From positions 1-24,944 of the forward strand of contig JAAZBQ010000155.1 in the NCBI GenBank assembly GCA_012513725.1: a stretch of DNA of 24,944 bases. Reading direction: 5' to 3'. Within the stretch, counting starts at the first letter, position 1. Each line of letters begins with the position of its first letter. The notes under the pieces are model-generated. The model worked only from the letters and a program-made list of their open reading frames with translations. It ran no database searches and was not told where the DNA came from. This DNA comes from Chloroflexota bacterium (GTDB lineage: Bacteria; Chloroflexota; Anaerolineae; UBA1429). Shown piece after piece: positions 1,956 to 5,924 of this stretch. The position numbers were made by a program, and so were the translations under genes.

Positions 1956-2408
1956 CTAGCCCTCGGGCTCAAACCGCACCGGCACCTGCCGACGCCGGAA
2001 CTCCTCACGCTTGGGCAGGCGCACCTGGAGGACGCCCTGCTCCAGGCGGGCCTGTATGGCGTCGGTGTCCAGGCCGCGGGGCAGGATGATCGTGCGCTGC
2101 GAGGTTCCGTAACGGCGCTCGCGGACGAGGGGACGGGCGGCGAGGAACTCCTCGTTCGGCCGGGTCTCCCCAGAGATGGTCAGCGCGTCGGAGGTCACGG
2201 AGATCTGCACATCCTCCTCGGCAACGCCGGGCATCACGGCGCTGATGATCACCTCGGTGTCCGTTTCGTATATATCGACTGCGACGTAGGGGCCGAGGGC
2301 GACGCGTTCCGTTGCGCCCGGGCGCCCAAAGCTCTCGTTCACCAGGCGGTTCATGGCCTCGTGCAGCGTGATCATGTCGCGCAGCGGATCCCATCTGCTG
2401 ATCGTCAC
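1956..2408 (-). CDS. Hsp20/alpha-crystallin small heat shock protein
   Basis: GGAGGAG RBS before GTG at 2408. SRWDPLRDMITLHEAMNRL N-terminus, VDIYET...PGV..EDVQISV, ERRYGTSQRTIILP, A.LEQGVL.V.LPK, C-terminal VPV (IXI-type) motif. Confidence 0.92.
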   Translation of the reverse strand: MTISRWDPLRDMITLHEAMNRLVNESFGRPGATERVALGPYVAVDIYETDTEVIISAVMPGVAEEDVQISVTSDALTISGETRPNEEFLAARPLVRERRYGTSQRTIILPRGLDTDAIQARLEQGVLQVRLPKREEFRRRQVPVRFEPEG

Positions 2409-2551
2409 GGTTCTCCTCCCGGCGCCTGCCGGCTGCCGCCAGACATCACAAGGGGGCCCGCGGGACCCCCCCAAGGCGGACACCGCGCGAGCCACATGGC
2501 GCTCGCCACCGGTCCGGCGGCACCACCGGCCCGCTGACAGGCCCTGCCCAT

Positions 2552-2560
2552 AGCATATCA
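2552..2560 (-). promoter_or_regulatory. Candidate extended -10 promoter (TGnTATGCT) for the Hsp20 gene
   Basis: Minus strand TGATATGCT about 145 nt upstream of the start codon; no good -35 at 17 bp. Confidence 0.35.
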
Positions 2561-2739
2561 GAAACGCGCACGGTTTCCTGGTGCAATGGGTTGGCAGTGC
2601 CGTTGCGCCGGGTTGCGCCGCGTTGGATATGCGTTGGAGGTCGTGGGCACCGCCGCGGTACGAGTGGATGTGCCTGTATTCCCTCCGTATCGGTCGTTAT
2701 GGGTCGGGCTCCGCCCGAATGGGCTCTCCTGTGCCGCGG

Positions 2740-2768
2740 TTGACAGGCGCGGCGCATCGTGATAAACT
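2740..2768 (+). promoter_or_regulatory. Sigma70-type promoter upstream of rpsC
   Basis: TTGACA (2740-2745), 17 bp, TAAACT (2763-2768), with TG at 2760-2761 (extended -10). Confidence 0.75.
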
Positions 2769-3021
2769 CTCGCCCATAGAGCGGCGGGACGAACGCGCGC
2801 CGGCCATCGGCCGGCAGCGCTGGCGAGCCCGGGCCCTCGGTGGATCGGCCCGGGTCGGCGTGGAGTACGGACTCGGCTTCTTCTGAGCTTCCCACACCTG
2901 GCTCGTCCGCCGAGCGGCTGTTGGCGGGTATACGAGTTGTGGCGCCGATCGATCCCTTGGCTTCTATGGGGCAGGGGCGCCGCGCAGCGTGACGAGTGGG
3001 TACGGAGGTCAGGAGGAGACT

Positions 3022-3702
3022 ATGGGTCGCAAGGTCAACCCTATTGGGTACCGATTGGGTATCATCAAGGATTGGGATTCCAAGTGGTTCGCGGAGGGCG
3101 AGGACTATGCCGCGAACCTTCGCCAGGACTATCAGATCCGCGAACTCGTCCACAATTTCCTCGGGCGGGCGAGTATCTCGCGGATTTTCATCGAGCGCTA
3201 TCCGACGCGCCTGTCGGTCAAGATCATGACGGCCAAGCCCGGTGTGGTGATCGGTCGGCGCGGCTCGACGATCAACGCCCTCAAGGCCGAGCTGGAAAAG
3301 CTCACCGGGATCACGGGCAACAAGCTGCGGGTCGACGTGGAAGAAGTCCGCCAGCCCGATCTCGACGCCAACATCGTGGCCGAGAGCGTGGCCGAGCAGC
3401 TGGAGCGGCGCGTCTCGCAGCGGCGGGCCATGCGCCGGGCGATGCAGCAGGCCATGCGCGGCGGCGCCGAGGGCATCCGCATCATGTGCAAGGGACGCCT
3501 GTCCGGCTCGGAGATGGGCCGCACCGACTGGGTGCGCGAGGGCCGTGTGCCGCTCCACACCCTGCGGGCGGATATCGATTATGGCACCGCCGAGGCCTCG
3601 ACGACCTTTGGCAAGATCGGGGTCAAGGTCTGGGTGTATCGGGGCGAGGTGCTGCCGGGCATGGAGCAGGCCGAGGGCGAGGCGGCCACCACCGCCCGTT
3701 AG
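3022..3702 (+). CDS. rpsC: 30S ribosomal protein S3 (stand-alone copy)
   Basis: AGGAGGAG RBS. MGRKVNPIGYRLGIIKDWDSKWFA, KH-domain TAKPGVVIGRRG, GIRIMCKGRLSGSEM, EGRVPLHTLRADIDYG, TTFGKIGVKVWVY. Confidence 0.97.
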   Translation: MGRKVNPIGYRLGIIKDWDSKWFAEGEDYAANLRQDYQIRELVHNFLGRASISRIFIERYPTRLSVKIMTAKPGVVIGRRGSTINALKAELEKLTGITGNKLRVDVEEVRQPDLDANIVAESVAEQLERRVSQRRAMRRAMQQAMRGGAEGIRIMCKGRLSGSEMGRTDWVREGRVPLHTLRADIDYGTAEASTTFGKIGVKVWVYRGEVLPGMEQAEGEAATTAR

Positions 3703-3721
3703 GGATACATGCGCCTGGCGG

Positions 3722-3775
3722 GAGGGCGGCGAGAGTCTCCGGGGTACCGGGGCTTCTCGCCGCCCTCTCTTGTTG
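3722..3775 (+). terminator. Intrinsic terminator after rpsC
   Basis: GAGGGCGGCGAGA pairs with TCTCGCCGCCCTC (13 bp), inner CCGG-GGTA-CCGG hairpin, followed by TCTTGTT. Confidence 0.7.
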
Positions 3776-3876
3776 CTGGGTGAGCGTTACGCGCGCTGGT
3801 GTCGCGTCTGGCGCTATTCCTCCACGGCTTGGTCACTCATCTCGGAGGTGCCACGTGGGCTGCGCCTTGATGACTG

Positions 3877-4188
3877 TTGCCCCTGCTCCATGCACTGTAT
3901 GTTTTCACTCCTTGGATCAGTGCGACGGTGATAGGTATCACGCCTGCCCAGTGGACGGTCCTGGCTGCCCTGGGACAGCTATTCGCCGGTTTCCTCACGG
4001 TAGTGAGGACTGCGCAAGCGTCGTGGGCTATGGCTCTTGCGTCCAGGCCGTTGAGGCTAGCCGTCGATCCCGACTTTTCGTTCTGGGGCACCCAGTACCT
4101 GAGCATCGTGAACCAGCCTTATGCCAGAGTTGAACTGGTCTTCGTCAATGCTAGATCTGGGATGACGCGCAGATCACATCTCGGCTAG
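3877..4188 (+). CDS. Possible small hypothetical protein or gene fragment with an N-terminal hydrophobic helix
   Basis: 103-aa ORF with a TM-like segment (QWTVLAALGQLFAGFLTVV); start codon and RBS unclear; lies in the low-GC islet. Confidence 0.3.
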   Translation: MPLLHALYVFTPWISATVIGITPAQWTVLAALGQLFAGFLTVVRTAQASWAMALASRPLRLAVDPDFSFWGTQYLSIVNQPYARVELVFVNARSGMTRRSHLG

Positions 4189-4250
4189 AGCCTCGGTGGA
4201 GTGGCTGTGCTGGAAGGTTGGCCTATGACTCGATTAGCGTTACGGGTGCG

Positions 4251-4910
4251 CTACTCGTAGGGGGAAAACCTAGCCACTACGTTCGGCCACTCGTACTTCA
4301 GATCCGCAAAGCAGGGTAGCCAGGATTCCTCGTCAAGTTCCTCCTCGGTCAACGTGATGTCGGTGCTCTTCCCACACTTGAGCGCGTGCAGTCGGTACGC
4401 GTTCACAAAGTTCTGCTCGCTCGCTGTGAGTCCACCGCTGTACCCGAGTGCTCGTGCTACAGCGTGTAGCCGGTACGCCTGTACCCACTCTATGACATAC
4501 CCCAGCAGTACTGCTGCTAGCCTGCCAGCGAGATAAGCCAGTGCCCCTGTCCAGCCGCTCACCACGTAGCCCATAGTCACTCCTGCTAACAAGAAAAAGC
4601 CATAGCCGGTAACATAACTCATGATAGTGGCGAGTGGCACAAGTCCTGGTAGAAACAGCCCAATCGCATTCATGATCATGCCGATGACATGCCCGCCAGC
4701 TACGACTGCTCCTAGCTGTAGTGGGGCTAAGCCGAAGGCATATCCAGCTACGCCGCCTGCGAACGAGAGCAGCCCTGGGATCGTCTCGATTCCCTCAGTT
4801 GTCTTCAGGATTCGGAAGGCCGATACATGGGGATGAAGCCGAGCCATCAGTGCGAAGGCATCGCGCACTGGGACTCGTATTTTTAGGCCGCGGGGTGTGT
4901 AGATGGACAT
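4251..4910 (-). CDS. Hypothetical multi-pass membrane protein (219 aa)
   Basis: GGAGGAG RBS 2 nt before ATG at 4910 (MSIYTPRGLKIR). About 4-5 hydrophobic segments and a soluble acidic C-terminal part. No family recognised. Confidence 0.7.
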   Translation of the reverse strand: MSIYTPRGLKIRVPVRDAFALMARLHPHVSAFRILKTTEGIETIPGLLSFAGGVAGYAFGLAPLQLGAVVAGGHVIGMIMNAIGLFLPGLVPLATIMSYVTGYGFFLLAGVTMGYVVSGWTGALAYLAGRLAAVLLGYVIEWVQAYRLHAVARALGYSGGLTASEQNFVNAYRLHALKCGKSTDITLTEEELDEESWLPCFADLKYEWPNVVARFSPYE

Positions 4911-5196
4911 AGCTCCTCCGACTACTGGTTCGTTCCGGTGTAGGCCACGACTGTATCGATATCGGACATCAACCTGCAGCGCTGCCCCATTTTGGCTGAT
5001 CTCTGCATGCCAAGTATACATCTAGATGTGTGCCTCAAGTAGGATTCTGCCGCTCATGCCGACTTAAACCGACATCTAGTGGTTGATGTCTGTGCGATGA
5101 GAGAAGTCGCTCCTCTGGTCCTAGGCCTGACTAGGGCGAGGCTTTCATGTGTTGGATGCACCACCCTTCAGTCCTACAAGGAACCAGAAAGCCCAG

Positions 5197-5225
5197 TTGA
5201 CACCCCGAGTCCCCGGCCCTACAAT
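5197..5225 (+). promoter_or_regulatory. Sigma70-type promoter of the yigZ unit
   Basis: TTGACA (5197-5202), 17 bp, TACAAT (5220-5225). Confidence 0.75.
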
Positions 5226-5252
5226 GCCGCCTGTCATTCTCCAGGGGGTTTC

Positions 5253-5924
5253 ATGCTAGGTGAAACGGACGCGGGGCCGGCCCCCGCCTACCGCTACCGA
5301 ACGCCGGCGGGCACTGCCGAGGCCGAGATGGTCATCAAGCGCTCGACCTTTATCGGTACGGCGGGCCCGGCGGCCGACGCCGCGTCGGCCGAGGCCTTTG
5401 TCGCCCGGGTGCGCGAGCGTTCCCCGGATGCCAACCACCACGCCTGGGCGTACCGCTTGGGGGGCGCCTGCGGGCAGGCTGAGATCGGCTCCTCCGACGA
5501 CGGCGAACCGGGAGGCACCGCAGGGCGCCCCATGCTGGCGATCCTAGAGGGCAGCGGCCTGCAGGAGATCGTCGTGGTGGGTACCCGCTATTTCGGCGGG
5601 ATCAAGCTCGGCACCGGCGGCCTGGTGCGCGCTTATAGCGCAGCCGCTCGAGAGGCGCTCAAGGCGCTGCCGGTCGAGGAACGGGTGCTGCACGAGGTGT
5701 ACACGTTCTCCGTCGATTACGCCCGGTACGGGGCCCTCCACTACCTGCTCCCCCAGCAGGGCGTGCGCGTGGAGGAGGAGGCGTTTGCCGAGCAGGTGAC
5801 GTTGCGTGTCGCCGTGCCCGCCGAGGCCCACGACGCCGTCGCCGAGATGCTGCGGGAGGCGACGAACGGAGAGGTAAACCTCGCCGACGAGCCGGAGCGC
5901 CGGCGCTACTATGCCGAGGAATAG
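5253..5924 (+). CDS. yigZ: YigZ/IMPACT family protein
   Basis: IKRSTFIG, ANHHAWAYR, SSDDGEPGGTAGRPML, VVGTRYFGGIKLGTGGLVRAY motifs. Start placed at ATG 5253, downstream of the promoter. Confidence 0.92.
   Translation: MLGETDAGPAPAYRYRTPAGTAEAEMVIKRSTFIGTAGPAADAASAEAFVARVRERSPDANHHAWAYRLGGACGQAEIGSSDDGEPGGTAGRPMLAILEGSGLQEIVVVGTRYFGGIKLGTGGLVRAYSAAAREALKALPVEERVLHEVYTFSVDYARYGALHYLLPQQGVRVEEEAFAEQVTLRVAVPAEAHDAVAEMLREATNGEVNLADEPERRRYYAEE

Follow-up and report, generated by a model that had tools for sequence, protein, structure and literature searches.

The rpsC locus and its neighbours

The window analysed here, a stretch of 24,944 nucleotides, comprises contig C809 in full. The contig belongs to a metagenome-assembled genome (MAG) of an uncultured Anaerolineae (Chloroflexota) bacterium, with 1011 contigs, 94.5% completeness and 6.81% estimated contamination. 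The features at and around the window's gene for ribosomal protein uS3, rpsC, are listed in Table 1.

Table 1. Features at the off-operon rpsC locus (positions are those of the window)
Feature	Position	Strand	Evidence or remarks
hsp20 (small heat-shock protein), divergent upstream neighbour	1956..2408	-	Pfam HSP20, 6e-17
Sigma-70-type promoter-like site	2740..2768	+	TTGACA, 17 nt, TG-extended TAAACT; 10/12 matches
Predicted 5' leader, about 250 nt	2775..3021	+	Two GGAGG motifs (3004-3008, 3012-3016) before ATG
rpsC paralog (uS3, 226 aa, off-operon type)	3022..3702	+	TIGR01009, 286 bits; paralog-clade placement
GC-rich terminator-like hairpin (core stem 3720-3769)	3720..3778	+	-57.2 kcal/mol, z -6.6; weak U-tract
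Strain-variable foreign low-GC islet, neighbour outside the rpsC unit	3777..5259 (about)	.	Between the rpsC hairpin and yigZ
Membrane-like ORF, 256 aa, within the islet	4251-5021	-
yigZ/IMPACT-family gene, next native gene downstream	5253..5924	+	Pfam and NCBIfam matches; promoter-like site 5197-5225

The rpsC frame is the sole long, high-GC3 frame in the 2.5-3.8 kb region of the window. Its product scored 286.2 bits on the TIGR01009 (rpsC_bact) model (cutoff, 114.5), with a match that extends over positions 1-210 of the 212 in the model, and contained an N-terminal KH_2 domain (PF07650, 3.6e-15) followed by a Ribosomal_S3_C domain (PF00189, 2e-34). The protein aligned end to end with the solved uS3 structures of Escherichia coli, Bacillus subtilis and Thermus thermophilus, and was about 50-57% identical to the canonical proteins of E. 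coli and B. subtilis in the alignments. Residues R134, R135 and R138 of the window S3 align to E. coli positions 131, 132 and 135, which we take to be R131, R132 and K135, the basic residues of the mRNA-entry helicase helix (numbering of Takyar et al. 2005). By the HMM cutoff, the KH type-2 and S3 C-terminal domains and the basic residues, the protein belongs to bacterial uS3, and the first-pass annotation of this DNA, which had called it a full-length, intact S3, was borne out. The window copy thus shares with the canonical, S10 operon-encoded uS3 (TIGR01009) its family, length, two-domain architecture and basic mRNA-entry residues. The named homologues of the window S3 come from Anaerolineae/Chloroflexota MAGs.

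As a universal core protein, uS3 makes up part of the mRNA entry channel and of the helicase. Bacterial rpsC usually lies between rplV and rplP in the highly conserved S10 operon, the gene order of which is among the most conserved known. The window gene lies outside the rplV-rpsC-rplP position, which is the usual context of the family and does not define it. A search for other ribosomal protein genes across the 24.9-kb contig, including rplV and rplP, found none besides rpsC, in agreement with what had been noticed at first.

The neighbours had been described as hsp20 and a foreign-looking islet, and both descriptions hold. The hsp20 gene was called as a 150-aa gene in independent assemblies, and it is the same neighbour in the lineage with a 92% identical S3. 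In 5 of the 7 informative same-species assemblies, about 86 nt stood in place of the islet. The tetranucleotide distance of the islet was 0.064, as opposed to a 99th percentile of 0.044, and its codon adaptation index (CAI) was 0.34, as opposed to a genome 5th percentile of 0.57. Searches of the islet ORFs against Pfam, NCBIfam, PHROG and PADLOC gave no match.

Expression signals of the window rpsC

The predicted promoter of rpsC, which had been presented as a consensus promoter, is near-consensus rather than consensus (Table 1). Its -35 and extended -10 elements are kept in L169, a species with a 92% identical S3, although the remaining leader has diverged. The ATG start codon of rpsC lies 3 nt downstream of a strong Shine-Dalgarno sequence, AGGAGGAG, at positions 3011-3018. 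The operon-borne rpsC genes of nearly all members of the family (e.g., L002:1501) start with TTG, whereas the off-operon copy of the window starts with ATG.

A structured regulatory RNA in the leader was considered and found to be unsupported. An Rfam E-value search of window positions 2300-5300 returned two chance-level matches only and none for the leader, and the leaders of three lineages folded no better than shuffled sequences (z of -1.56 for the window, and +0.86 and +1.03 for the other two). Between lineages, only about 55 nt around the promoter could be aligned, and no sequence conservation was seen in the leader beyond the promoter and a CU-rich stretch. This CU-rich, anti-Shine-Dalgarno-like stretch lies at window positions 2873-2892, about 130 nt 5' of the Shine-Dalgarno sequence, and is also present in the leaders of L169 and L172. 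The minimum-energy fold of the window leader pairs it with the Shine-Dalgarno sequence, a pairing that was not consistently predicted across the three leaders. No degenerate rpsU remnant was found in the window leader, and no HrcA/CIRCE operator was matched within 3 mismatches between hsp20 and rpsC.

Downstream of rpsC, the strong terminator that had been reported stands as a very stable hairpin, but its U-tract, UCUUGUUGC, is weak. The hairpin is kept in L169 and L171, where the stem arms carry base differences. In the strains that are free of the islet, yigZ lies 154 nt after rpsC and has its own promoter-like site. Since rpsC has a promoter and a hairpin of its own and yigZ is preceded by its own promoter, the rpsC unit looks monocistronic from the arrangement of its signals. 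Of the earlier suggestion that this S3 is separately regulated, the part that stands is the conserved promoter and hairpin, which point to separate transcription.

A second rpsC in the S10 operon of the same MAG

The S10 operon was located on contig C591 of the same MAG, in the order tuf-rpsJ-rplC-rplD-rplW-rplB-rpsS-rplV-rpsC-rplP-rpmC-rpsQ-rplN...secY. The canonical slot is filled: rplV and rplP still flank an rpsC, which is intact, encodes 225 aa and is 68-70% identical to the window copy. The first-pass annotation had left the choice between excision of S3 from the operon and a second S3 paralog. Excision is rejected for this MAG by the operon copy on C591, although it does occur in a sister genus (see below). 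The paralog reading is confirmed, and the paralog is much older and more widespread than could be seen from the window. While the canonical rpsC sits between rplV and rplP, the window gene is a second, apparently monocistronic copy with its own promoter and hairpin.

All other ribosomal proteins tested in the MAG were single-copy. The rpsU gene (bS21) is present in 2-3 copies in many genomes of the family; the copies in this MAG (G000) are at C703:8849-9031 and C528:7-108, one of them being cut by a contig end, and G008, a genome of a sister genus, has rpsU in three places. The CAI values of the two S3 copies were 0.709 and 0.713. Codon usage does not separate the two copies, and codon adaptation is uninformative as a proxy for their expression.

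Off-operon rpsC in relatives

The survey covered 42 species genomes of one Anaerolineae family and 251 genomes of the class sampled across 59 families. An off-operon cluster of the order rpsU-rpsC-(rplP)-carD was found in four or five genera of the family (example loci, L026:2654-4788, L022:8055-9551 and L036:6952-8867), and most genera of the family are without an off-operon S3 copy. In genus g24, the extra S3 was present in all four genomes in the order rpsU-rpsC-carD. In genus g3, it was present in five of six genomes in the order rpsU-rpsC-rplP-carD. Operon copies were also present in both genera. Genome G010 carries the rpsU-rpsC-rplP-carD cluster, and G011 carries a partial form (rpsC fragment-rplP-carD) at a contig end. 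The off-operon contig of g24 also bears the only rplS of the genome, which ties this contig to the main genome. Genomes with the off-operon cluster, and some others, have a duplicated bS21, L16 is duplicated only where the rpsC-rplP pair exists, and L19 is never duplicated.

Two genomes show other forms of the site. In G044 (genus g3), the off-operon rplP is truncated to about 55 residues (L039:6013-6177) and the adjacent rpsC is intact, an arrangement that resembles a step on the way to a solo rpsC. In G020, a complete genome without the S3 paralog, rpsU is followed directly by carD (L188), which by its gene order is the empty form of the off-operon site.

Synteny of the window with relatives was found in part. 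The gene order hsp20-rpsC-yigZ-OpuAC-pterin-hydantoinase of the window recurs on a 67-kb contig of the species with a 92% identical S3, but the rpsU and carD context of the other genera is absent in the window lineage: neither rpsU nor carD adjoins rpsC in the window, and the same was seen in its closer relatives L169, L172 and L174.

In the sister genus g8, the off-operon rpsU-rpsC-rplP-carD cluster (L152, L153) holds the only rpsC and the only rplP. The S10 operon of g8 (L157:3500-4650, L158 and L159, from three genomes) reads rpsS-rplV-rpmC-rpsQ-rplN, with rpsC and rplP missing and a gap of 83 nt where they would sit. Since g8 is left with the off-operon pair alone, the off-operon type can be the sole uS3 of a cell.

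Among the 251 class genomes sampled, the S3 paralog clade was confined to the one Anaerolineae family. Two S3 matches were also seen in four families outside it, and S3 duplication elsewhere in the class was rejected for the genomes examined there. Family f35 has one gene with an insertion, and the second match in G083 is a contig-end fragment; the matches in the two-match genomes G142 and G195 look fragment-like from their weak E-values. In f35, split S3 matches were found in 7 of 7 sampled genomes (L177-L184, e.g., G152:C1:3384618-3385331), and in the four genomes examined there is a single S3 gene, the product of which carries about 20 inserted aa behind residue 45.

Phylogeny and selection

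An S3 tree, which had been proposed as a check, was built by maximum likelihood (LG+C20). The off-operon copies and the window copy formed one clade (support, 89/90) that is sister to the operon copies of the family, and the whole family had a support of 87/89. The outgroup of the S3 comparison consisted of distant Bacillota S10 operons, the only loci returned by the related-locus search. An expanded tree included seven metagenomic relatives with 73-92% identity to the window copy, which break the long branch of the window. In the expanded tree, the window copy and its 92% identical relative grouped with a support of 100, these two and the other six with 97, and all off-operon copies with an SH-aLRT support of 91; the in-family value was 93. 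The three added relatives that were examined are all solo rpsC genes, and one of them again adjoins apgM. The AU test rejected a grouping of the window copy with the operon copy of its own genome (delta lnL, 28.3; p, 0.0098), and with it a recent in-genome duplication of rpsC.

The membership of the window copy in the off-operon clade is moderately supported, by branches of 83-91 and by shared residues. Eight alignment positions split the paralog from the operon S3 proteins, and the window copy has the paralog state at seven of them (D19, E58, R63, R134, R139, K157 and G166), K16 being operon-like. Positions 134 and 139 correspond to E. coli positions 131 and 136, on the mRNA-entry helix.

Within genera, dN/dS was 0.05-0.18 for the paralogs and 0.04-0.09 for the operon copies. 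These ratios indicate that the S3 paralogs are under purifying selection that is mildly relaxed. All seven polymorphic rpsC sites among the same-species assemblies were synonymous third positions, in a set that is biased by its look-up through the identical protein.

The L16 tree was poorly resolved, with the off-operon L16 of g3 grouping weakly with the g3 operon L16, and its resolution was too poor to show a single block duplication.

Proposed origin and role of the off-operon uS3

The window gene is an intact second uS3 under selection, with conserved expression signals of its own and of a type that is capable of serving as the sole S3. We consider it probable that, as a whole, the locus represents a functional off-operon uS3 with its own transcription, which arose by an old duplication and would provide a supply of uS3 that is uncoupled from the operon. 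An rpsC duplication, probably of rpsC-rplP, would have occurred in the stem of one Anaerolineae family, and the duplicate would have been placed between a second rpsU and carD in several genera. In the window lineage, only the rpsC of the duplicate appears to have survived, relocated beside hsp20, apgM and yigZ. There, rpsC would be transcribed alone from a housekeeping-type promoter, with transcription ending at its own hairpin, and the canonical copy would stay in the S10 operon.

Because g8 lives with the off-operon rpsC-rplP alone, such an S3 can probably build working 30S subunits. The uS3 of the window may likewise enter the 30S subunit, either together with the operon copy or in its place. 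The most likely role of the window gene would be that the separate promoter uncouples the supply of uS3 from the control of the S10 operon. As uS3 is a late-binding protein on the wall of the mRNA entry channel, the extra copy could be drawn on under certain conditions to assemble, repair or remodel ribosomes.

uS3, bS21 and uL16 are late-assembling ribosomal proteins, and uL16 is placed close to the tRNA sites. The action of CarD is to stabilise the open complexes that form at rRNA promoters. Late assembly together with the role of CarD makes a condition-specific ribosome module plausible. A bolder form of this idea is that the rpsU-rpsC-rplP-carD cluster, with the solo rpsC of the window as its remnant, constitutes a zinc-independent "alternative ribosome" module of late ribosomal proteins with their own regulation and CarD. 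We offer this form tentatively and think it rather doubtful. If it were true, ribosomes could be refitted in stress or slow growth at the sites where mRNA enters and leaves and in the neighbourhood of the peptidyl-transferase centre.

Alternative explanations

It is conceivable that the second S3 is a redundant duplicate in slow transit, in which a gene is relocated by duplication and then reciprocal loss, and that this lineage has simply yet to lose a copy without a distinct role. The loss of the off-operon copy from most genera, the reciprocal outcome in g8 (where the operon copies were lost), the truncated rplP paralog of G044 and the equal codon adaptation of the two S3 copies would all fit such a course. 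The retention of the paralog since before the genera split fits it poorly, as do a dN/dS of about 0.1 in at least five genera beside an intact operon copy and the conservation of promoter and hairpin. The fixed differences from the operon copy, moreover, include the two positions on the mRNA-entry helix. We therefore regard passive persistence as unlikely, and a retained, functional uS3 as the better description of the paralog.

Eukaryotic uS3 has been reported to bind or repair nucleic acids outside the ribosome. An extraribosomal job of this kind (e.g., nucleic-acid binding or repair) in an off-operon S3 that is no longer mainly ribosomal would be in keeping with its somewhat faster evolution than that of the operon copy, and with the stress- or transcription-related nature of its neighbours (hsp20 and, in relatives, carD). 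However, g8 depends on the off-operon type as its only S3, the whole uS3 sequence is conserved, including the 16S-binding and mRNA-entry regions, and no domain has been gained or lost. A mainly extraribosomal protein is thus very improbable, and a ribosomal role remains the reading that we favour.

The first-pass annotation had named a misassembly or a chimeric contig as what could overturn it. The protein identical to the window S3 was found on 12 contigs, and the 10 that were examined were assembled from independent read sets and match the window at 99.2-99.8% DNA identity. Contigs of sufficient length among them carried the junction hsp20-rpsC or rpsC-yigZ, and L126 extends across apgM-hsp20-rpsC-yigZ. 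C809 holds the only yigZ and the only apgM of the bin, apart from rpsC no gene of C809 is matched by a close copy elsewhere in the bin, and yigZ was found in five of five relatives tested. From yigZ rightward, C809 is syntenic with G008 at 55-87% protein identity, and in the S3 tree the operon copy on C591 has its closest relative in the operon S3 of G008. The tetranucleotide profiles of C809 and of its first 3.8 kb are typical of the bin. The reproduced junctions, the single-copy genes, the synteny and the composition make chimerism or contamination unlikely, and we rejected either as the main reading. A closed genome with both S3 copies was sought in the family and none was found; the three single-contig genomes have one S3 each. 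An artefact in which two Anaerolineae genomes were merged in one MAG, or in which the contig is chimeric, could draw on this and on the fragmentation and estimated contamination of the bin, but with the recurrence of the junctions, the completeness of a bin in which nothing else of C809 is duplicated, the two-copy pattern in 4/4 and 5/6 species of two genera and the observation that off-operon contigs never bear any other S10-operon gene, its probability is slight indeed.

Relation to known systems and significance

To our knowledge, nearly every bacterial ribosomal protein paralog to which a role has been assigned is either bS21 or a small zinc-ribbon protein, and we know of no Zur link for the off-operon S3 cluster. 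Our literature search found no description of a conserved uS3 or uL16 paralog and none of an S10 operon without rpsC-rplP; a published account of the arrangement, which had been named at first as another way in which the observation might fall, did not come to light. Few paralogs of bacterial ribosomal proteins were recorded by Yutin et al. (2012; PMC3353972), and all highly diverged ones were zinc-ribbon proteins; S3 is not among the proteins listed there as never duplicating.

The zinc-independent alternative ribosomal proteins (C- paralogs of bL31, bL33, bL36, uS14, bS18 and bL28; mycobacterial AltRP operon, PMC5912738) are also diverged off-operon paralogs, are clustered like the genes in the relatives described here, and are presumed to be swapped into ribosomes in a condition-dependent manner. 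The C+/C- logic, however, is inapplicable to uS3, uL16 and bS21, which are without a Zn-ribbon, and the partner gene here is carD. Each of the two S3 proteins has just one Cys, which falls in the same column of the alignment, and a CxxC motif is absent from both, so they do not form a zinc-ribbon paralog pair. Paralogs of the zinc type are below 50% identical (PMC3353972), whereas the divergence of the window S3 is moderate, at about 70% identity.

The bS21 paralogs of Francisella tularensis (PMC13374519) also concern a late-binding 30S protein near the mRNA path, and the loci related to the window carry a second rpsU. They involve another protein in another phylum, however. Extra genes for core ribosomal proteins are likewise found in Leptospira borgpetersenii and Bartonella bacilliformis as identical operon duplications (PMC3353972). 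Those copies are nucleotide-identical and are recent or assembly artefacts, in contrast to the window S3, which is old, diverged, under selection and common to several genera.

The findings call for caution with CheckM-style contamination estimates, rp16 phylogenies and other marker-gene methods that take S3 and L16 to be single-copy and linked in the operon. For the family itself, the deletion of rpsC-rplP from the S10 operon of g8, and life on the off-operon copies, amounts to a natural complementation experiment. A conserved second uS3 under selection would extend ribosome heterogeneity to core functional sites, to which the relatives of the window add uL16, bS21 and carD.
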